From: Candidatus Magasanikbacteria bacterium GW2011_GWC2_37_14
GTDB taxonomy: Bacteria > Patescibacteriota > Patescibacteriia > Magasanikbacterales > UBA922
Length of the DNA stretch: 64,000 nt
Reading direction: 5' to 3'
Assembly (NCBI GenBank): GCA_000990355.1
Contig: LBSX01000002.1
Span: 6,000 to 69,999, forward strand
The translations under genes were made by a program, and so were the position numbers. The notes beneath the pieces were generated by a model. It saw only the letters and a list, made by a program, of their open reading frames with translations. It did no database searches and had not been told where the DNA came from. Positions 10,221 to 52,183 of this stretch are shown one piece after another. Each line of letters opens with the position of its first letter. Position 1 is the first letter of the stretch.

Positions 10221-10778
10221 ATGTCAGACAATAAATATTTAAACATCGTAAACGAAGCTGGCCAAATTATTGGTGAAGATTCTCGGGAAAATATTCATAA
10301 AAATGGTTTGCTACATCGCGAAGTTCATGTTTGGTTTTATACCCCTCAAGGTGAGATTATTTTGCAACACCGTGGTAAAAATGCCGAGACTTTTCCTGAT
10401 TTGTTATATGTTACTGTGGGTGGTCATGTAGAAATAGGAGAGGATTTCGAGCAAGCCGCTCTAAAAGAAGTACAAGAAGAAACAGGTGTAAAATTAAAAA
10501 TTAGTGATTTAGTTTTGGTATATAAAGCTCACGCGCCAATTGATACTGACACTGTTACTCATAAAATAAATAATACCATAAGAGCAGTTTACGTTTATTG
10601 TTATCGAGGAGCAATCAAAGATTTACAAACAGAAAAAGGTGTAGGGCAAGGTTTTGAAGTATGGCCTTTGACAAGAATATTAAATATTTCAAATGAAGAC
10701 CGAATAAAATTAATTTTTAGTATTTTAAAAGAACCAGCTTTGGGAATTTTAAAAAAGATTCAAACAATGATAAAATAG
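10221..10778 (+). CDS. Nudix hydrolase
   Basis: GGHVEIGEDFEQAALKEVQEETGV Nudix box. Confidence 0.8.
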   Translation: MSDNKYLNIVNEAGQIIGEDSRENIHKNGLLHREVHVWFYTPQGEIILQHRGKNAETFPDLLYVTVGGHVEIGEDFEQAALKEVQEETGVKLKISDLVLVYKAHAPIDTDTVTHKINNTIRAVYVYCYRGAIKDLQTEKGVGQGFEVWPLTRILNISNEDRIKLIFSILKEPALGILKKIQTMIK

Positions 10779-37341: not shown

Positions 37342-37399
37342 ATTGCCTTTTTTATACTTGGATGCTAGAATAGTGTACATATACAAGCTAAAAGAGAGC

Positions 37400-40384
37400 A
37401 TGAAAGATCTGAATTTAGAACAAAAACAAGCAGTAGAATACACCTCTGGTCCGCTTTTGATTGTCGCCGGAGCTGGTACTGGTAAAACTACAGTAATCAC
37501 CCAAAAGATTACTTTTTTGGTTAAGCAAAATTTGGCCAAACCCGAAGAAATTTTGGCTTTAACTTTTACAGAAAAGGCAGCCGGGGAGATGCAGGAGCGC
37601 GTGGATCAACTATTGGATTTGGGTTATTCAGACATGCAGATTTCAACTTTTCATGCTTTTTGTCAAAAACTTTTAGAATTTCATGGGCTAGACATTGGCT
37701 TGTCAAATCAATTTAAATTATTAACTCCCACTGATGCTTGGCTCTTGGTACGTAAAAATTTAGATAAATTTAATTTGGATTATTATCGACCCCTGGGTAA
37801 TCCTACGCGCCATATCCATGAATTAATTAAACATTTTTCTAAGTGTAAGGATGAATTAATTACGCCAGCAGAATATTTAAAATATGCGGAAGAAGTGAGT
37901 TTGGATGATGATGCCGACCCCACCCCATCCTCCCCTACAAGGGGAGGGGAACGTAAGCGTCTCACTGAAATAGCTAATGCTTATCATACTTATAATCAAC
38001 TTTTGCTGGATAATAATTGTCTGGACTTTGGTGATCTAATTTTTTATGGCCTTAAATTGTTAAAAGAACGGCCAAATATTTTAAAATTATTGCAAAATAA
38101 ATATAAATATATTTTGGTTGACGAGTTTCAAGATGTTAATTATGCACAGTATGAATTGGTAAAATTGTTTACGACTAATGGAAATCAGTTAACAGTTGTG
38201 GGAGACGATGACCAGTCAATTTACGCCTTCCGCGGAGCATCGGTTTCCAATATCTTACGTTTTAAAGATGATTTTCCTAATGCCAAAGAAATTGTTTTAA
38301 CAGAAAATTATCGTTCAGGCCAAGAAATATTAGATTTAGCCTATAAATCAATACAAAATAATAATCCCGATCGTCTAGAGATTAAATTAAATATCAATAA
38401 ACAATTAAAGTCAGTAGTTAGTAGCCTGCCTGCCGGCGAGGCAGGTCTAAAGTCTGAAGTCGAATACAAGCATTTTAATACTTCAACTGAAGAAATTAAT
38501 TTTGTAATTAATAAAATTTGTGAGATTTGTAAAGATGAATCTGTAGTTTTGTCAGATTTTGCAATTTTAATTCGCGCCAATAGTCAGGCCGAACCGTTTA
38601 TTAATGCTTTTGAAAAAGTTGGTCTGCCTTATGAGTATCTGGCTTCGTCTGGATTATATCGCCAGCCATTAATTTTAGATTGTATTAACTTTTTAAAAGT
38701 ATTGGACAACTATCACGAATCCAGTGCTATTTTTCGTTTATTACATTTACCTTTTTTAAAATTTAATCCAGATGATTTACAAAAAATAACCTATTTTTCT
38801 AAGAAAAAAAGCATTTCTTATTATGAAACTCTAAAACGTGGATTGGAAATTAATTTATCAAAAACAGGTATTGAAATAGTCAATAAATTGTTAAATATAA
38901 TAAACAGTGGCACACAAATGGCCAAGGAAAAAAAACCTATAATAATTTTATTAGATTTTTTAGAACAAAGTGGTTATTTTAAATATCTTGCCTTGGAAGA
39001 TGAACAAGGTAATAGAGAAATAATTAAACAAATTAAAGAGCTACGAAGTTTTTTTGAAGAAGTTAAACACTACGAAGAATCAGTGCCTCAAGCACGCGTG
39101 TCAGATTTTTTGGAACATTATAATTATATTTTAGAGTCTGGTGATGAAGGGCAAATGTTTAAAAATCTAGAAGAAACAGAAGCGATAAAAATTTTAACGA
39201 TTCATTCTGCCAAGGGCTTAGAATTTAAATATGTTTTTGTTGTTAACTTGGTGGAAGAACGTTTTCCTAGTCGTAAACGTGGAGAAGCTATTGAATTGCC
39301 TGTATCATTAATTAAAGAAAATCTATCAGAAGTGGATTACCATGTTAATGAAGAAAGACGTTTATTTTATGTGGCCTGTACCAGAGCCAAAGAAAAATTA
39401 TTTTTAACTAGCGCGGATGATTATGGTGGGGTGAGAAAGAAGAAAGTTAGTAGGTTTATTGATGAATTAAATTTAAGTATGGAAGCAAGGCAACAATATA
39501 ACAATGTAACTATTGACACATTGCCACATTGTCACACTGTTGACAAAAAAGATATTAATCAGTCTAAAAGTACTACAATTTTATCTGACACCTTTTCCTA
39601 CTCCCAAATCAATTCATATCTTCGCTGTCCTTATCAGTATAAATTAGCCCATGTATTAAAAATTCCTACCACAGGCAATGCTAGTTTTAGTTTTGGTTCA
39701 ACTATACATAATACTTTACAAAAATTTTATAACCAGGTTATTGAATTAAATAGTATTAAACAAGATTCGTTGTTTGTTCAACATACTACAACTAAACAAG
39801 TTGGAGAAATAAAAGTTCCAACATTGGATAATTTACTAAAATTTTATAAAGATTCTTGGCAAGATGACTGGTATCAAAATAAACAACAACGAGAGGAATT
39901 TTACAAAAAAGGACATAAAATATTGGAAATATTTTATTCTTCAGAGCAAAAAAATGGCTGGACTGTGCCAGTTTTTCTAGAGAGCGGTTTTAAAATTAAA
40001 ATAGGAGATTATTTTATAAATGGACGCATAGATCATATTGATAAATTATCGGCTGGTGCTTTAAAGATTATTGATTATAAAACCGGTAAAGCTAAAGAAA
40101 AAGTAGTTGGCGATGATAAAAATCAACTGCTAATTTATCAAATTGCCGCGGAAATTTTACCTGAATACAAAAATATTGGCCCAGTTAGTGAATTAACTTT
40201 TTATTATTTAGAAGAAAATCTTACAACGTCTTTTGTTGGCGACGATAAAGACAAAACAAAACTACAAGAAAAAATTATCAAAACAATTGGGGAAATAAAC
40301 GATTCTAATTTTGTTGCCACACCCAGTGAACACATTTGTCAGCATTGTGATTTTAGAGACATTTGTCAGTTTAGACAATTATAA
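37400..40384 (+). CDS. UvrD/PcrA-type superfamily 1 helicase fused to a C-terminal PD-(D/E)XK nuclease with Cys4 (AddA/AddB-like)
   Basis: AGAGTGKT, VDEFQD, GDDDQSIYAFRGA, TIHSAKGLEF and VACTRAK helicase motifs. IIDYKTGK, QLLIYQ and RCPYQY...CQHCDFRDIC nuclease/Fe-S staple motifs. ATG at 37400. Confidence 0.85.
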   Translation: MKDLNLEQKQAVEYTSGPLLIVAGAGTGKTTVITQKITFLVKQNLAKPEEILALTFTEKAAGEMQERVDQLLDLGYSDMQISTFHAFCQKLLEFHGLDIGLSNQFKLLTPTDAWLLVRKNLDKFNLDYYRPLGNPTRHIHELIKHFSKCKDELITPAEYLKYAEEVSLDDDADPTPSSPTRGGERKRLTEIANAYHTYNQLLLDNNCLDFGDLIFYGLKLLKERPNILKLLQNKYKYILVDEFQDVNYAQYELVKLFTTNGNQLTVVGDDDQSIYAFRGASVSNILRFKDDFPNAKEIVLTENYRSGQEILDLAYKSIQNNNPDRLEIKLNINKQLKSVVSSLPAGEAGLKSEVEYKHFNTSTEEINFVINKICEICKDESVVLSDFAILIRANSQAEPFINAFEKVGLPYEYLASSGLYRQPLILDCINFLKVLDNYHESSAIFRLLHLPFLKFNPDDLQKITYFSKKKSISYYETLKRGLEINLSKTGIEIVNKLLNIINSGTQMAKEKKPIIILLDFLEQSGYFKYLALEDEQGNREIIKQIKELRSFFEEVKHYEESVPQARVSDFLEHYNYILESGDEGQMFKNLEETEAIKILTIHSAKGLEFKYVFVVNLVEERFPSRKRGEAIELPVSLIKENLSEVDYHVNEERRLFYVACTRAKEKLFLTSADDYGGVRKKKVSRFIDELNLSMEARQQYNNVTIDTLPHCHTVDKKDINQSKSTTILSDTFSYSQINSYLRCPYQYKLAHVLKIPTTGNASFSFGSTIHNTLQKFYNQVIELNSIKQDSLFVQHTTTKQVGEIKVPTLDNLLKFYKDSWQDDWYQNKQQREEFYKKGHKILEIFYSSEQKNGWTVPVFLESGFKIKIGDYFINGRIDHIDKLSAGALKIIDYKTGKAKEKVVGDDKNQLLIYQIAAEILPEYKNIGPVSELTFYYLEENLTTSFVGDDKDKTKLQEKIIKTIGEINDSNFVATPSEHICQHCDFRDICQFRQL
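37916..37953. repeat. GC-rich module CCCCACCCC plus CCTCCCCT-aca-AGGGGAGG inside the helicase gene
   Basis: Same hairpin as 1443-1463. Encodes DPTPSSPTRGGE. Confidence 0.75.
38422..38449. repeat. GC-rich module TAGCCTGCCTGCCGG...GGCAGG inside the helicase gene
   Basis: The 15-nt core TAGCCTGCCTGCCGG is identical to 1465-1479. Encodes SLPAGEAGL. Confidence 0.75.
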
Positions 40385-46707: not shown

Positions 46708-46767
46708 TTGCTCTTTTTTGTTTTTTTTTCTATACTACTCATTATCCGCAAGTTGCGGTTTATTTTA
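46708..46767 (+). promoter_or_regulatory. candidate greA promoter (TTGCTC-N17-TATACT) followed by a short leader hairpin CCGCA-agt-TGCGG plus T-rich tail
   Basis: TATACT 46731-46736. Hairpin 46746-46758 followed by TTTATTTTA, before the ATG at 46780. Confidence 0.35.
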
Positions 46768-46779
46768 TTAAGATTTTAT

Positions 46780-47244
46780 ATGCAAGATGATATTCAATAC
46801 ATGTCCGAAGAAAAATTAGCAGAATTAAAAAAAGAACTAATTTATTTAAAAAATGAAAAATCAATACAATTACGTAAACGTATAGATGAAGCTCGACAAA
46901 TGGGTGATTTATCAGAAAATGCTGAATATCACCAAGCTCGAGAAGATTTGTCTTGGGCATTATCACGAGTAAATGAAATCCAGTCAATTTTAGGTAATGC
47001 CCAGATCATTGTTAACACTGTTGGCAAGGGCGTTTCTCTTGGCTCTTTTGTAAAAGTAGAAGATAAAAGTGGTAAAGAAAAAGAATTTACTATTGTAGGT
47101 GCGCAAGAAGCAAACCCTTTAATTGGTAAAATTTCCAATGAATCACCACTTGGTAACGCTCTTTTAGGTAAGAACAAAGGTGACAAAGTAGAAATAAATA
47201 CTCCAGGTGGTATCCAGATATACAAAATCCTAAAAGTTGGCTAA
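46780..47244 (+). CDS. greA: transcription elongation factor GreA (paralog 2)
   Basis: ARQMGDLSENAEYHQAREDL, SPLGNALLGKNKGD. Confidence 0.9.
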   Translation: MQDDIQYMSEEKLAELKKELIYLKNEKSIQLRKRIDEARQMGDLSENAEYHQAREDLSWALSRVNEIQSILGNAQIIVNTVGKGVSLGSFVKVEDKSGKEKEFTIVGAQEANPLIGKISNESPLGNALLGKNKGDKVEINTPGGIQIYKILKVG

Positions 47245-47396: not shown

Positions 47397-49484
47397 ATGG
47401 AAAAAATAACAAACATCAACGACGAAAAAACTATTAGAATTGGTAAATTAAACGATTTAAAAAAACTTGGAGTAAATCCTTATCCAGCCAAAGCGCATAA
47501 AAAAAATACTTTAGAAGAAGCATTAAGCATGACCGATGGTGAGAAAGTTTGTTGTGCTGGTAGAATTATTACTTTTAGAGAAATGGGTAAATTAACTTTT
47601 TGTCATTTACAAGATGCTAGTGCAAAAATGCAAATTGCCTTAAAAGATGGTGAGATTGATAAAGAAAGTTATCATTTGTTTTTAAAGAAAATTGATTCTG
47701 GTGATATTATTCAAGTAGAAGGAGAAAGATTTACTACCCACAAAGGCGAAGCTTCTATTTTAGTTAAAAAATGGACCTTGCTTAGCAAATCACTTCTACC
47801 TTTACCAGATAAATTTCATGGATTACAAGATGAAGAGATTCGTTTGCGTAAACGATATTTAGAAATGATTGACAATCCCGAAGTAAAAGATATTTTTATT
47901 CGTAAAAGTAAATTTTGGAATAGTACTCGTCAATTTTTATTAAAAGAAGGATTTTTGGAAGTCGAAACCCCAGCCTTGGAAGTAACTGCTGGTGGAGCCA
48001 GTGCTACTCCATTTGTTACACATCACAATGCCCTAGATATTGATGTTTATTTACGAATTTCTATGGGTGAACTTTGGCAAAAAAGATTAATGGTTGCTGG
48101 TTTTGAAAAAACATTTGAAATTGGTAGACAATTTAGAAATGAAGGCATGAGTCGTGAGCATTTGCAAGATTATACACAAATGGAATTTTATTGGGCCTAT
48201 GCGGATTACAACATGGGTATGGAATTAGTAGAAAAATTAATTAAATATATTGCCAAAGAAACATATAACACACTAAAATTTACGATTGGTGATTTTGGTG
48301 AAATTGATTTAGGTGAAAAATGGGAGCGTTATGATTATGTTTCTATAATTAAAGAAAAAACTGGCGTAGATGTTTTAAAGACTAATGATAAGGAATTGAA
48401 AATTGAACTTAAAAAATTAAAAGTAGCCTATGAAGAAACCGAGGGTCGTAGTAGTTTAATTGATGCTTTATGGAAATTTTGTCGCCGGTCATTAAAAGGT
48501 CCTGGTTTTTTAATTAATGTACCTGTAGCTGTGTCTCCTTTAGCCAAAAGAAAAACCGATAACCCAGAATTAACCGAAAGATTTCAAATTATTATTGCTG
48601 GTTCTGAATTGGGCAATGGTTATTCCGAATTAAATGATCCAATCGATCAAGCAGAAAGATTTAAAGAGCAGGCCAGCATGCGTGAAGCCGGGGATAATGA
48701 AGCACAAATGCATGACACAGACTTTGTAGAAGCTTTGGAACATGGTATGCCACCAACCTGTGGTTTTGGTTTTTCCGAACGTTTATTTTCGTTTTTAGAG
48801 AACAAACCAATTCGCGAGTGTGTAATTTTTCCTTTGATGAGACCAGAAAAGGGTGATTTAGAAAAAATCAGTGTTGTCAGTAAAAAAAACAATGATGTTT
48901 TATTAAAACTTCCAATTACTCGTGAGGAGGCGTTATGTGCTATAAAAAAGTATACTAAAAAACCAGCAAATTTAAATCATTACCTAGAATCAGAAGTGGT
49001 AATGCGTGCTCTAGCAACACATTTAAAACAAAACGTGGAATATTGGGGTATGCTTGGGTTACTTCATGATATTGATTGGGAAATGACTGAGGATGACTCT
49101 ATAAAACATTTGACTAAAGCTCCAGAATTGTTAAAAGGATTAGGTTTTGATGATTATTTTATTGAAATTATTTTGTCTCATGGTTATGGTTGTAATTGTG
49201 CTGGGTTGAATGATAAAAAACGTTCAAAACAATTAGAATTTGCTTTGGCCTGTGCTGAGACAGTAACTGGGTTAATTTACAGTGTATCTTTAATGAGACC
49301 GGATAAAATTGCTACTTTAGATGCTAAATCGGTAATGAAGAAATTTAAGGATAAGAAATTTGCGGCTAAAGTAGATCGTGAGGTAATTAAAGAATGTGAA
49401 AAGATCGGTTTGGGTGTTGAGGAATTTTTACAATTATCAATCGAAGCTATTCGTTCGATTGCTGGTCAAATTGGTTTAAAATAA
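47397..49484 (+). CDS. lysS: lysine--tRNA ligase (class II) fused to a C-terminal HD-domain protein
   Basis: OB-fold N-terminus, FRNEGMS and class II core up to ...FPLMRPE, then a roughly 200-aa domain with LLHDIDW and SHGYG (HD superfamily). Confidence 0.88.
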   Translation: MEKITNINDEKTIRIGKLNDLKKLGVNPYPAKAHKKNTLEEALSMTDGEKVCCAGRIITFREMGKLTFCHLQDASAKMQIALKDGEIDKESYHLFLKKIDSGDIIQVEGERFTTHKGEASILVKKWTLLSKSLLPLPDKFHGLQDEEIRLRKRYLEMIDNPEVKDIFIRKSKFWNSTRQFLLKEGFLEVETPALEVTAGGASATPFVTHHNALDIDVYLRISMGELWQKRLMVAGFEKTFEIGRQFRNEGMSREHLQDYTQMEFYWAYADYNMGMELVEKLIKYIAKETYNTLKFTIGDFGEIDLGEKWERYDYVSIIKEKTGVDVLKTNDKELKIELKKLKVAYEETEGRSSLIDALWKFCRRSLKGPGFLINVPVAVSPLAKRKTDNPELTERFQIIIAGSELGNGYSELNDPIDQAERFKEQASMREAGDNEAQMHDTDFVEALEHGMPPTCGFGFSERLFSFLENKPIRECVIFPLMRPEKGDLEKISVVSKKNNDVLLKLPITREEALCAIKKYTKKPANLNHYLESEVVMRALATHLKQNVEYWGMLGLLHDIDWEMTEDDSIKHLTKAPELLKGLGFDDYFIEIILSHGYGCNCAGLNDKKRSKQLEFALACAETVTGLIYSVSLMRPDKIATLDAKSVMKKFKDKKFAAKVDREVIKECEKIGLGVEEFLQLSIEAIRSIAGQIGLK

Positions 49485-49489
49485 AAATT

Positions 49490-49909
49490 ATGAAAACCGT
49501 AATGATCTTTGGCACTTTTGATATTGTCCATGCTGGACATTTGCATATGTTTAAAGAAGCCAAGAAATATGGTGATTTTTTAGTCGTTGTGGTTGCACGT
49601 GATCAAAATGTAGAAATAATTAAGGGTTTAGGGTCATTACATAGTGAAGAAGAAAGATTGTTGTTTTTAGAAAATATTAAATTAATTGATCAGGTTTTGT
49701 TGGGAGACAAAACTGATGTTTATAAAGTCGTAAATGAAATTAAACCAAATATAATTGCTTTAGGTTATGATCAAAAAATTTATGTAGACAATCTTGAAAA
49801 GGCTATCACCAATTTCGGGTTGAATACTAGAATAGTACGATTAGCACCTTATCAAGAAAATCGTTTAAAAAGTAATAAAATTCGTAAATATATTGAACGT
49901 TTAGTATAG
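49490..49909 (+). CDS. cytidylyltransferase-like nucleotidyltransferase (FAD synthase RibL / TagD-like)
   Basis: FGTFDIVHAGHLHMF HxGH motif, 139 aa. Confidence 0.7.
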   Translation: MKTVMIFGTFDIVHAGHLHMFKEAKKYGDFLVVVVARDQNVEIIKGLGSLHSEEERLLFLENIKLIDQVLLGDKTDVYKVVNEIKPNIIALGYDQKIYVDNLEKAITNFGLNTRIVRLAPYQENRLKSNKIRKYIERLV

Positions 49910-49912
49910 ATT

Positions 49913-50941
49913 ATGCAAAAAGTTTTAATTGCGACAACCAACCAAGGAAAATTTAATGAAACCAAGGAATTTTTGAGTGATTTGGCTTTTAATTTTATTA
50001 GTTTAAATGATTTGAACAAAAAAATTTCTCCACCAGAAGAAAACGAAGATAATTTGGAAAAAAATGCCATGTCTAAAGCGGTTTATTATGGAGAAAAAAC
50101 CGGTTTAATTACACTTTGTGATGATTCTGGTTTGTTTGTTAAAACTTTAAAAAACTTTCCCGGTATTTATTCAGCGCGAATTGCAAAAACCGATAAAGAG
50201 CGTTGTAAAATTATTTTAGAAAAATTAAAAAATAAAAAAAGCCGTTCTGCTATTTTTGCTTTAGTTTATGCACTCTATAACCCCAGCAATCAGGATCTAT
50301 ATTTAGCCAGTGGTATGACCAAGGGCAAAATTACCGAAAAGGAAATTGGCAAAAATGGTTTTGGTTATGACCAAATTTTTTATGTAAATGAAAAAAAGAA
50401 AACTTACGCTCAAATGAAAATTCAAGAAAAAAATTCTTGTTCGCATCGAGCTAAGGCCTTAAACAAAGTAAAATATTTTTTATTAAATCAGTTTGACCCA
50501 AAACATATTGTCGTTCCTTTTGGTATTATTGTAAAAGAAGGCAAAATGTTAATATCTCTACGTAATGATCCTCATCGTCCAAAATCCCACAAAAAATGGG
50601 AAATGCCTGGTGGGGGAGTAGATTTTGGAGATAATGTAGAATCTACATTATTAAAAGAAGTAAAAGAAGAAACAGGTTATAAAATAAAAATTATTAAGCA
50701 ATTGCAAGGAATTACTGTTAAAAGTGTTGCATACCCAAATTACAAATATCAAGTTTTTTTAGTTCCTTTTGTTTGTAAAATTATTAGTGGTAAATTAGCA
50801 TTGAACAGTAATGAAGTTTTGACTACAAAATGGATTAAACCAAATGATTACAAAAATTACAAATTTTTAGAAGGTAATAATATCATGTTAAAAAAATTAT
50901 TACCGCAATTAAAACAAGTTATTAAAGATTTTAAATTATAA
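49913..50941 (+). CDS. fusion of RdgB/HAM1 non-canonical purine NTP pyrophosphatase and a Nudix hydrolase
   Basis: ATTNQGKFNE, GFGYDQIF and SHRAKAL (HAM1), then GGGVDFGDNVESTLLKEVKEETGY (Nudix box). Confidence 0.8.
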   Translation: MQKVLIATTNQGKFNETKEFLSDLAFNFISLNDLNKKISPPEENEDNLEKNAMSKAVYYGEKTGLITLCDDSGLFVKTLKNFPGIYSARIAKTDKERCKIILEKLKNKKSRSAIFALVYALYNPSNQDLYLASGMTKGKITEKEIGKNGFGYDQIFYVNEKKKTYAQMKIQEKNSCSHRAKALNKVKYFLLNQFDPKHIVVPFGIIVKEGKMLISLRNDPHRPKSHKKWEMPGGGVDFGDNVESTLLKEVKEETGYKIKIIKQLQGITVKSVAYPNYKYQVFLVPFVCKIISGKLALNSNEVLTTKWIKPNDYKNYKFLEGNNIMLKKLLPQLKQVIKDFKL

Positions 50942-50944
50942 AAT

Positions 50945-52183
50945 ATGCTAGATATTAAATTCATTCGTGAAAATGTGGAATTAATCAAAACTAACTGCGC
51001 TAATCGACATGTAAAAGTTGATATTGAAAAATTAGTAGAATTTGACGACAAAAGACGAGGGATGCTAAAAAGAATTGAAGATTTAAGAGCTAGTAGAAAT
51101 CAAAATTCCAAGCAAAAACCAAGTGAAGAAGAAATTGCTAAAATGAAGATTGTTGGAGAAGGCATAAAAGCCTTGGAAGTGGAAATGCAGACAATTGACG
51201 CTGAATATTTAAATTTGTTAAAACAAATTCCAAATTTATCCCATCCAGAGAGTCCAATTGGCGGTGAAGCAGATTATAAAGTAATTTGTGAAAGTGGTAA
51301 GCCACCTAAATTTGACTTTGTACCCAAAGATCATGAAACCCTAATGACAAGTTTAGATTTAATTGATTTTGAACGAGGAGCTAAAGTGTCGGGTTCTAAG
51401 TTTTATTTCGTAAAAAATGACGCTGTACGGCTCAATTTTGCCCTTTTGAGCTATGGTATGGATATTGTGAATAAATATGGCTACACCCTAATGGAAACCC
51501 CGGATTTGGCCAAAAATGAGATTTTGAGCGGTACTGGTTATAACCCTAGGGGTAATGAAACAGCAATTTATTCTGTCGAAAATACTGACCTAAGTTTAAT
51601 AGCCACTGCCGAAATCACTGTTGGTGGTTATCATGCCAATGAAGTTTTGGATTTGTCTAGTGGACCAAAAAAATATGTTGCCTTATCACATTGTTTTCGT
51701 ACCGAAGCAGGGTCCTATGGCCAGGAATCCAAAGGCCTGTATCGCGTTCATCAATTTACTAAATTAGAAATGTTTGTTTTTTGTAAACCAGAAGAAAGTG
51801 AAAAATATCACGAAGAAATATTAAATATTGAAAAAGAAATTTGTGATGGCTTAAAATTAAATTATCGCGTGATTGATATTCCGACAGGCGATTTGGGCGG
51901 GCCCGCTTATCGCAAATTTGATCTAGAAGCTTGGATGGTGATGAAAGACGGCTATGGTGAAATTACTTCTACTTCCAATTGTACAGATTATCAAGCACGA
52001 CGATTAAATATTAAATACAAAAATGAACAAGGCAATAATGAATATGTTCATACTTTAAATGGTACTGCTGTAGTCTTGAGCCGTTTTCCTCTGTCAATAG
52101 TTGAACAATACCAGCAAGCTGATGGGAGTGTTAAAATTCCTGCAGTGTTGGTAAAATATTTGGGTAAAAAAATTATTAAATAA
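50945..52183 (+). CDS. serS: serine--tRNA ligase
   Basis: N-terminal coiled coil, FRTEAGS motif 2, GTAVVLSR motif 3. Confidence 0.95.
   Translation: MLDIKFIRENVELIKTNCANRHVKVDIEKLVEFDDKRRGMLKRIEDLRASRNQNSKQKPSEEEIAKMKIVGEGIKALEVEMQTIDAEYLNLLKQIPNLSHPESPIGGEADYKVICESGKPPKFDFVPKDHETLMTSLDLIDFERGAKVSGSKFYFVKNDAVRLNFALLSYGMDIVNKYGYTLMETPDLAKNEILSGTGYNPRGNETAIYSVENTDLSLIATAEITVGGYHANEVLDLSSGPKKYVALSHCFRTEAGSYGQESKGLYRVHQFTKLEMFVFCKPEESEKYHEEILNIEKEICDGLKLNYRVIDIPTGDLGGPAYRKFDLEAWMVMKDGYGEITSTSNCTDYQARRLNIKYKNEQGNNEYVHTLNGTAVVLSRFPLSIVEQYQQADGSVKIPAVLVKYLGKKIIK

Follow-up and report, generated by a model that had tools for sequence, protein, structure and literature searches.

The 64,000-nucleotide stretch of DNA analysed here (the window; Candidatus Magasanikbacteria bacterium GW2011_GWC2_37_14, contig LBSX01000002.1, positions 6,000 to 69,999) carries a continuous reading frame in which a class II lysyl-tRNA synthetase (LysRS) is joined to a complete HD-type metallo-phosphohydrolase module. 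The gene, lysS, lies in a syntenic position and encodes the housekeeping class II LysRS of the organism, and the fusion is old and has been kept under selection in many bacteria of the Candidate Phyla Radiation (CPR) and in archaea of the DPANN assemblage. Judged by its sequence, the appended module belongs to a distinct, uncharacterised HD subfamily that mostly stands alone in DPANN and Asgard archaea, and we tentatively consider that it may remove nucleotide by-products of the synthetase to which it is tethered. Synthetases with appended or fused domains are already known, as are HD hydrolases, and the protein itself is present in public databases, where it is 100% identical to KKQ28104.1 / UniRef100_A0A0G0IVE8 from the same organism; the public annotation of KKQ28104.1 names the lysyl-tRNA synthetase only and leaves the HD module unannotated. 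Our literature search found no description of a LysRS-HD fusion or of this HD subfamily, and the architecture, its CPR-plus-DPANN distribution and the modular lysS slot described below appear to be undescribed.

Architecture and spread of the LysRS-HD fusion

47397..49484, plus strand: complete LysRS::HD fusion reading frame, 695 aa and TAA stop (from the list of open reading frames; identical to KKQ28104.1; coordinates checked by translation)
47547..47783, plus strand: N-terminal anticodon-binding OB fold of LysRS, residues 51-129 (PF01336, 46 bits; cut-off 27)
47829..48839, plus strand: class II catalytic core, residues 145-481 (PF00152, 236 bits)
48132-48146, plus strand: motif 2, FRNEG, residues 246-250, invariant
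48852..48908, plus strand: inter-domain linker, residues 486-504, GDLEKISVVSKKNNDVLLK, hydrophilic, variable in length and predicted to be disordered
48909..49481, plus strand: HD/HDIG metallo-phosphohydrolase module, residues 505-695, spanning the full length of a family whose members are otherwise stand-alone proteins of ~190 aa

The frame opens with ATG, closes with TAA and contains zero internal stops in the list of open reading frames, and its 695-aa product falls into three blocks: class II LysRS (residues 7-485), a linker (~486-504) and an HD/HDIG domain (505-695, ~190 aa). That these represent a class II LysRS, a tether and a complete HD module is practically certain. Two curated LysRS profiles cover residues 7-485 with scores above their cut-offs (NF001756, 537.3 bits, cut-off 468; TIGR00499, 483.7 bits, cut-off 427.6). 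With these cut-offs passed and both the OB domain and the catalytic motifs present, the protein is a member of the class II LysS group; FRNEG (246-250), E404, E411, N413, G456, G458 and R473 are invariant among 59 aligned fusions. The initial annotation, which had been made from the letters alone, had placed the end of the synthetase core near CVIFPLMRPE and recognised an HD domain by LLHDIDW and SHGYG. Translation puts these stretches at residues 475-484, 555-561 (nt 49059-49079) and 594-598 (nt 49176-49190), respectively, the LysRS profiles end at residue 485, and the covalent fusion read from them is borne out by LysRS and HD/HDIG profiles scoring above cut-off. The junction, described there as free of stops, indeed lies in a single continuous frame, and the same architecture recurs in diverged orthologues.

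One may ask whether a frameshift or the loss of a stop codon joined two adjacent genes in this metagenome-assembled genome, an a priori possibility that would agree with the stand-alone state of all top 120 relatives retrieved by the module alone. The identical fusion protein has, however, been recorded from 6 contigs of several sources, and the frame is likewise continuous in 87 diverged orthologues and in 14 species genomes from independent studies. Since both the identical records and the diverged orthologues keep the frame intact, we regard such an artefact as excluded, its residual chance being negligible.

The linker differs in character from the two domains that it connects. Measured from the invariant Pro483 to the first HD helix in the 59 fusions, it spans 17-55 aa (median 25), and the mean frequency of the most common residue is 0.21 in the linker versus 0.74 in the core and 0.63 in the HD module. 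AlphaFold2 modelled the full-length protein with a mean predicted local distance difference test score (pLDDT) of 90.1, both modules being confident and linker residues 488-502 falling below 50; the predicted template modelling score (pTM) was 0.69 for the full-length protein versus 0.92 for the HD module alone. According to these models, the HD module is tethered rather than docked, sitting on a disordered linker of about 20 residues. Such a flexible linker would imply co-localisation and co-expression of the two activities rather than a rigid substrate channel.

How widespread the fusion might be had been left to a survey, and the answer is that it is widespread, in CPR bacteria as well as in DPANN archaea. 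With the full-length protein as query, the search retrieved dozens of homologues that are 675-744 aa long and 50-71% identical, and a hidden Markov model (HMM) of the HD family detected a complete C-terminal HD module in 87 of the 120 top full-length homologues; identity in the HD part ranges from 37 to 71% across the fused orthologues. We also scanned genomes, one per species, and examined the best 80 loci for fusion. The HD family occurs in at least 580 species-level genomes, and 14 of the 80 best loci contain a continuous LysRS::HD frame, with 44-63% identity from end to end. Six of these genomes are CPR (Parcubacteria, Magasanikbacteria) and eight are DPANN (Pace-, Woese- and Nanoarchaeota, Diapherotrites). 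The archaeal labels are genuine and not binning errors, because the neighbours are archaeal: at locus L038 the fusion adjoins an archaeal Hjc resolvase, at L057 PCNA and a primase of the eukaryotic/archaeal type. As the fusion persists in archaeal genomes with unrelated neighbours, it seems to be kept as a unit instead of being a mere accident of the CPR operon.

Neighbour-joining trees were built from distances, rooted at the midpoint and drawn from a biased sample, and as crude trees they provide only hints on loss and transfer. Some fused modules make up deep clades of their own, whereas the free archaeal proteins of the sample are nested among other fused ones, and in the LysRS part the archaeal fusions do not form one group. 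The LysRS of the window falls beside unfused LysRS of Magasanikbacteria within a clade of fused proteins, a hint that the module may have been lost or replaced secondarily in Magasanikbacteria relatives. As a separate observation, one partial Gribaldobacteria protein (P0209, 668 aa) shows two OB-fold and two class II core stretches in Pfam matches and may be a tandem-duplicated LysRS.

The HD module and its relatives

When searched in isolation, the module scores above the cut-offs of PF01966 (23.1 bits, cut-off 22) and TIGR00277 (34.9 bits, cut-off 27.6), both placed at ~526-598; in the full-length context PF01966 reaches 21.1 bits, slightly under its cut-off of 22. AlphaFold2 predicts the module with high confidence (pLDDT 95.2, pTM 0.92) as an all-helical domain with the fold of the HD superfamily, as expected of an all-alpha HD protein. 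Conservation was assessed in an alignment of 207 modules (87 fused, 120 free), to which the following counts refer.

48978..48995, plus strand: first ligand His528 within an invariant HxxExE motif (H528, E531, E533); H528 in 207/207, E531 and E533 in at least 92%
49065..49079, plus strand: HDIDW, comprising the HD doublet H557-D558 plus D560 and W561; H557 and D560 in 207/207, D558 and W561 in 206/207
49107..49109, plus strand: His571, predicted second-metal ligand, 207/207
49176..49190, plus strand: SHGYG with His595, predicted second-metal ligand, 207/207
49257..49259, plus strand: Glu621, the acidic residue found where the HD motif has its last Asp, 207/207

Within the HD superfamily, a six-residue H..HD..H..H..D pattern is diagnostic of a dinuclear site, and multinuclear HD enzymes lean to bulkier substrates or those with several scissile bonds (PMC8177086). 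Based on the alignment, H528, H557, D558, H571, H595 and E621 are predicted to form such a dinuclear metal site. Glu621 is inferred to be the terminal metal ligand from its helix position: it lies mid-helix in the long helix 612-632, and the alignment shows no conserved Asp nearby. Since the ligands are near-invariant and match the H..HD..H..H..D criterion, the module looks catalytically competent; the metal-binding H...HD...D set, on whose presence the initial annotation had staked its reading, is kept throughout the 207 modules, with D558 in 206 of them and Glu as the terminal acid. Further near-invariant residues are E531, E533, D560, W561, K648, K649, R661 and E666. With a median pI of 5.9 and a net charge of -4/-5, the module is acidic to neutral, as small-molecule enzymes more typically are than general RNA binders.

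These features bear on the idea that the module is a catalytically dead, tRNA-binding appendage resembling the one in the beta subunit of glycyl-tRNA synthetase (GlyRS-beta). The HD domain of GlyRS-beta has lost its HD doublet, which reads Ser393-Lys394 in E. coli, and serves tRNA acceptor-arm binding or allostery (PMC8464048). Here, by contrast, the ligands persist in the 87 fused and 120 free modules, the HD doublet being kept in 206-207 of the 207, the module is C-terminal on a disordered linker, it is not basic, and the same family occurs as a free enzyme-sized protein. We therefore consider a dead domain very improbable.

The module alone retrieved 6147 homologues. Its nearest relatives, with 54-65% identity, are stand-alone proteins of 181-221 aa, the named ones among the top 120 being from DPANN and Asgard archaea, and the module matches the family HMM from about position 3 to 194. 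Among representatives clustered at 50% identity, a search returned 131 clusters with E<=1e-30 and 1,353 with E<=1e-10. Outside CPR, the family is also joined to other partners: in some archaea it is fused N-terminally to the SRP receptor FtsY (SRP54_N and SRP54 GTPase; P0241, 628 aa; L028, L059, L066), and AMMECR1::HD (P0388) and beta-propeller::HD (P0314) proteins exist as well. LysRS is nonetheless the dominant fusion partner, found in at least 12 of the top 150 clusters at 50% identity. The stand-alone archaeal members displayed no informative conserved operon in their genomic context.

Among solved structures, Foldseek gave no match to the HD module below E=1e-3, and neither single-sequence nor profile searches of PDB sequences with the module yielded anything significant; the sole PDB sequences matched by the family profile were YqeK chains (E 0.12-0.18, not significant). 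NCBIfam profiles were compared with 45 family members, of which 45 matched HDIG, 45 the HD region of RNase Y (best E 3e-7), 43 TIGR00295 (3.5e-7) and 40 the aTrm56-HD tail PRK12703 (5.5e-8), all except the generic HDIG model far under the family cut-offs. Membership of RNase Y is not indicated, the score of the window's module being about 14 bits against a cut-off of 454 with only profile positions 331-400 (the HD region) aligned, nor is that of HD-GYP, as the family reads S-H595-G and is devoid of the HHE...GYP motif.

The initial annotation had pointed to YqeK as a precedent for Ap4A (diadenosine tetraphosphate) hydrolysis by an HD enzyme, thereby implying kinship, and had proposed profiling the domain against HD subfamilies. 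The HD/HDIG cut-offs were indeed passed; the YqeK model TIGR00488 gave no match at E<=1 in 45 of 45 members, and the NadD-YqeK fusion model PRK07152 matched 2 of 45 (E 0.054). Nevertheless, the sequence comparisons confirm a distant homology between the module and YqeK. Profile-profile alignment with hhalign gave a probability of 93% (E 2.5e-7, 56 columns), a partial comparison as the YqeK alignment, seeded from 2OGI, consisted of N-terminal fragments only, and the spacing from the first His to the HD doublet is 29 residues in each case (H528-H557 here, H21/H50 in YqeK 2O08, H29/H58 in Sp-YqeK). A conserved Arg stands three residues before the first His in HD enzymes of the phosphatase type (PMC8177086). 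In the YqeK alignment this element reads KR-x-x-H, and YqeK R26 aligns with D/N of the module family; at position 525 the fused modules have N/T/I/D and 102 of 120 free ones have D, Arg being outside the four commonest residues. Lys62 of HDYAK is essential for Ap4A cleavage in Sp-YqeK (PMC11857287), and its position is taken by Trp561 in 206 of 207 modules (HDIDW versus HDYAK). The six-ligand motif ends in Glu here with spacings that differ from those of YqeK; HD-GYP, PgpH and the HD oxygenases have this motif too, so that it is not specific to YqeK. Without a profile match, with Arg(-3) and Lys62 substituted and no nadD context at the locus, we reject the module as a YqeK orthologue, and the kinship implied earlier did not hold in that form.

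The lysS neighbourhood and candidate functions

Magasanikbacteria and other CPR share the gene order mreB-mreC-PBP2-greA-lysS-...-serS, and together with the low G+C content of the window (about 32%) the mreB-mreC-PBP2-greA context fits a CPR/Patescibacteria genome. The genes around the fusion are as follows.

46708..47244, plus strand: greA, conserved upstream neighbour (GreA_GreB_N and C domains; synteny)
49490..49909, plus strand: small adenylyl/cytidylyltransferase-family gene, 139 aa (PF01467, 72 bits), a conserved neighbour 5 nt past the fusion stop
49913..50941, plus strand: fusion of RdgB/Ham1 (XTP/dITP diphosphatase) and a MutT-like NUDIX domain, 342 aa (TIGR00042, 166 bits, above 145; NUDIX, 49 bits)
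50945..52183, plus strand: serS, downstream end of the conserved neighbourhood (Seryl_tRNA_N and tRNA-synt_2b)

The start of greA is probably downstream of the listed TTG (178 aa), because orthologues have 152-156 aa and the Pfam match begins at residue 31. The nucleotidyltransferase was considered as NadD, which would have mirrored a nadD-yqeK arrangement, and rejected: no NadD-specific model was among the matches of the 139-aa protein, which are to the generic TIGR00125 and to RfaE-II/TagD-like models below equivalog cut-offs. The Ham1-NUDIX fusion occupies the same position in other Magasanikbacteria (L007, L009, L010 and the contexts of P0139 and P0164), and in L005 a NUDIX gene lies directly downstream; nucleotide house-cleaning enzymes are thus frequent among the genes that follow lysS.

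At the 3' end of lysS, CPR genomes have an accessory slot whose content varies; it takes up modules singly or stacked, or separate genes, in the following states.

LysRS::HD: the window, L007 and L008
LysRS alone, directly followed by the nucleotidyltransferase: P0139
LysRS::DUF2000: P0164
LysRS::DUF2000::HD: P0253
LysRS::B3/4::HD: P0178/L011
LysRS::HAD::HD: P0295
unfused LysRS and a separate HD-GYP-like protein of 353 aa, from a different subfamily: L009
unfused LysRS and a PD-(D/E)XK protein: L010
lysS, then HAD, then HD::Ham1: L012

The corresponding coordinates are L009:7487-8548, L010:7510-7899, L011:5001-7748 and L012:4307-6188, with P0164, P0235, P0253 and P0295 as the proteins. The 353-aa protein of L009 was rejected as a split-off version of the same module, being HD-GYP-like and not matched by the family HMM. 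The B3/4 insert matches the editing domains of PheRS-beta and the canavanyl-tRNA deacylase CtdA.

LysRS is a dimer, and class II LysRS is a classic source of Ap4A and other dinucleoside polyphosphates (ApnN), which arise when ATP or another nucleotide attacks enzyme-bound lysyl-AMP. A hydrolase tethered to the synthetase could destroy such polyphosphorylated nucleotide by-products, with Ap4A/ApnN as candidates, at their source, acting as a functional analogue but not an orthologue of YqeK/ApaH and working inside a conserved nucleotide house-cleaning cluster (Ham1-NUDIX, HAD). That the HD module clears Ap4A-type by-products of LysRS is the possibility that we place first, by analogy, and we hold it to be somewhat short of an even chance. 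It would be in line with the chemistry of LysRS, the dinuclear motif and the distant YqeK homology, with the nucleotide-hydrolase neighbours and the alternative Ham1 and HAD fusions, and with the non-basic nature of the module and the retention of the fusion in archaeal genomes with other neighbours. The presence of a non-orthologous HD-type protein beside the unfused lysS of L009 further suggests that an HD-type hydrolase next to LysRS is selected. Several observations weigh on the other side. GlyRS-beta was the top structural match of the HD module, and the profile affinity is nearer to RNase Y-type HDIG, TIGR00295 and the aTrm56 HD tail than to YqeK (0/45). Residues typical of YqeK and HD phosphatases are absent (Arg(-3) replaced by D/N/T, Lys62 by Trp). 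Modules of the tRNA-editing type, B3/4 and DUF2000, share the lysS slot. Most family members stand alone in archaea, where a link to LysRS is not evident, and the module appears dispensable, because the closest sister lineages lost it without replacement (P0139). Of the Ap4A reading in the initial annotation, the HD identity and the ligand set thus stand and the YqeK kinship falls, so that the function is proposed by analogy and from LysRS chemistry.

The slot modules and profile affinities could also be explained by a role in tRNA quality control or repair, an alternative absent from the initial annotation, with the module acting as an HD phosphodiesterase/phosphatase on RNA ends or on the aminoacyl-adenylate, for example by stripping a 3'-phosphate or 2',3'-cyclic phosphate off damaged tRNA(Lys) for recharging; HD would then be one of several interchangeable cis-acting C-terminal modules of CPR/DPANN LysRS (B3/4 deacylase-like, DUF2000, HAD, HD). 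Bacterial CCA-adding enzymes possess an HD domain that acts as a 2',3'-cyclic phosphodiesterase/phosphatase. The affinity to the RNase Y HD region (45/45), TIGR00295 and the HD tail of aTrm56 (40/45) would fit such a role, as would the absence of the phosphatase-type Arg, which is expected of the phosphodiesterase class, and the triple fusions LysRS::B3/4::HD and LysRS::DUF2000::HD, B3/4 being similar to PheRS editing domains and CtdA. The profile similarities, however, all stay far under cut-offs and stem in large part from the HD(IG) core that these domains have in common, the charge of the module is acidic to neutral, the Ham1 fusion and the NUDIX and HAD neighbours point to free nucleotides, and the neighbourhood showed neither an RNA ligase nor a kinase as a partner. 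On balance we find tRNA repair somewhat doubtful, but a serious competitor of the Ap4A reading. A broader version strikes us as unlikely: the LysRS C-terminus would be a docking site for interchangeable maintenance cassettes, and HD, as a metal-dependent phosphohydrolase and a new kind of catalytic domain appended to a synthetase, would mend the 3' end of tRNA(Lys) or break down ApnN and adenylates that are non-cognate or abortive. If true, aminoacylation would include a quality-control step carried out by a phosphohydrolase, for which no precedent has been described. Independently, we noticed a gene for a LigT-like 2',3'-cyclic phosphodiesterase / 2'-5' RNA ligase a few genes downstream of the LysRS::HD fusion in Diapherotrites (L044:4703-5200, minus strand), a single case of possible relevance to hypotheses on RNA ends.

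The conserved gene order lysS-(HAD)-HD-(nucleotidyltransferase)-Ham1/NUDIX-serS could likewise mean that the module is a generic house-cleaning or salvage hydrolase, a nucleotidase or NTP/dNTP hydrolase acting with Ham1, NUDIX and HAD, and that the fusion reflects operon adjacency with no mechanistic meaning. This would be consistent with fusion of the HD gene on either side, to LysRS upstream or to Ham1 downstream (L012), with the unrelated partners FtsY, AMMECR1 and the beta-propeller, with the flexible unconserved linker and a pTM of 0.69, which indicate no fixed interface, with the loss of the module in close relatives and with the stand-alone state of most family members. Yet the predominance of LysRS among the fusion partners (in the top 150 clusters and in 14 of 80 species genomes), the range of 37-71% module identity and two domains of life spanned by the fusion, and its survival in archaeal genomes without the CPR neighbourhood are not what mere adjacency predicts. 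Moreover, the usual signature of HD nucleotidases is a mononuclear H..HD..D site plus Arg (PMC8177086); the family, unlike these enzymes, has the six-ligand set and no Arg. A generic hydrolase without functional connection to LysRS is thus rather doubtful in our view.

If the module does degrade Ap4A-type nucleotides, Ap4A clearance would have been solved a third time, independently of ApaH and YqeK, by an enzyme physically linked to the principal Ap4A producer, and this in the two great radiations of ultra-small symbiotic prokaryotes; Ap4A homeostasis in CPR/DPANN would become directly testable. If tRNA ends or adenylates are its targets, the module would establish a new class of repair or editing domains appended to synthetases. 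The fusion offers a first functional handle on an HD subfamily that occurs in at least 580 species-level genomes, and it exposes both a modular LysRS accessory slot and the sharing of whole fusions between CPR bacteria and DPANN archaea, module and slot alike being hidden by the public label 'lysine--tRNA ligase'.

Elsewhere in the window, gene orientation and GC skew flip together, from minus to plus at ~9.8-10.2 kb and from plus to minus at ~57.8-58.1 kb. The first switch is flanked by genes for a CNNM/CBS transporter and a NUDIX protein, the second by genes for an FtsQ-like POTRA protein and an M23 peptidase. A replication origin at these switches was considered and rejected, with no dnaA or dnaN near either point. 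Two further genes look ordinary: a second, stand-alone NUDIX hydrolase gene (10221-10778, plus strand) and a gene for a 1013-aa UvrD-helicase with a PD-(D/E)XK nuclease, AddA-like (37343-40384, plus strand).

Comparison with known systems

YqeK, the symmetrical Ap4A hydrolase of Firmicutes (COG1713/TIGR00488; PDB 2O08, 2OGI, 3CCG, 8WMY, 8JJA), shares with the module an all-helical HD domain of the same size (~190 aa), the six-residue dinuclear pattern, the 29-residue spacing from the first His to the HD doublet and a co-linear N-terminal helix, and its substrate class would plausibly fit LysRS chemistry. The two differ in that the last ligand is Asp in YqeK and Glu here, the spacing from the HD doublet to the third His is 33 residues in YqeK and 14 here, and only 121-122 of 195 residues superpose. 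YqeK ranges over Firmicutes, whereas the module family is found in CPR, DPANN and Asgard lineages and has no nadD-yqeK context here. The HD domain of GlyRS-beta (bacterial (alpha-beta)2 GlyRS; PDB 7EIV, 8IE2, 7YSE) sits inside its protein as a rigid part, flanked by the B3 and the anticodon-binding domain; in contrast, the present module is C-terminal and tethered, keeps its catalytic ligands and has a sequence identity of 9-11% to it.

The HDIG phosphodiesterases (RNase Y, the c-di-AMP phosphodiesterase PgpH, HD-GYP) have in common with the module the HDIG model, ligands of the dinuclear type and the absence of the phosphatase Arg. The module has, however, neither the KH domain nor the membrane anchor found in RNase Y, it is devoid of PgpH's 7TM domain and of the HHE...GYP motif, its family carries HDxDW in place of the HDIGK signature, and scores are far under the equivalog cut-offs. 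TIGR00295 and the aTrm56-HD tail (PRK12703) are the closest curated profiles after generic HDIG; both are archaeal and also uncharacterised, and the PRK12703 type provides another HD domain fused to a tRNA-handling enzyme, although scores about ten-fold under the family cut-offs argue for separate subfamilies. Finally, a class II LysRS joined to an enzyme that uses or handles its product is found in mycobacterial LysX (MprF-LysRS; PMC9437257), and the LysX model NF002821 partially matches the fusion protein. The LysX partner is N-terminal, membrane-bound and consumes Lys-tRNA, and LysX is a paralogue and not the housekeeping enzyme, whereas here a soluble C-terminal phosphohydrolase is carried by the syntenic housekeeping LysRS.

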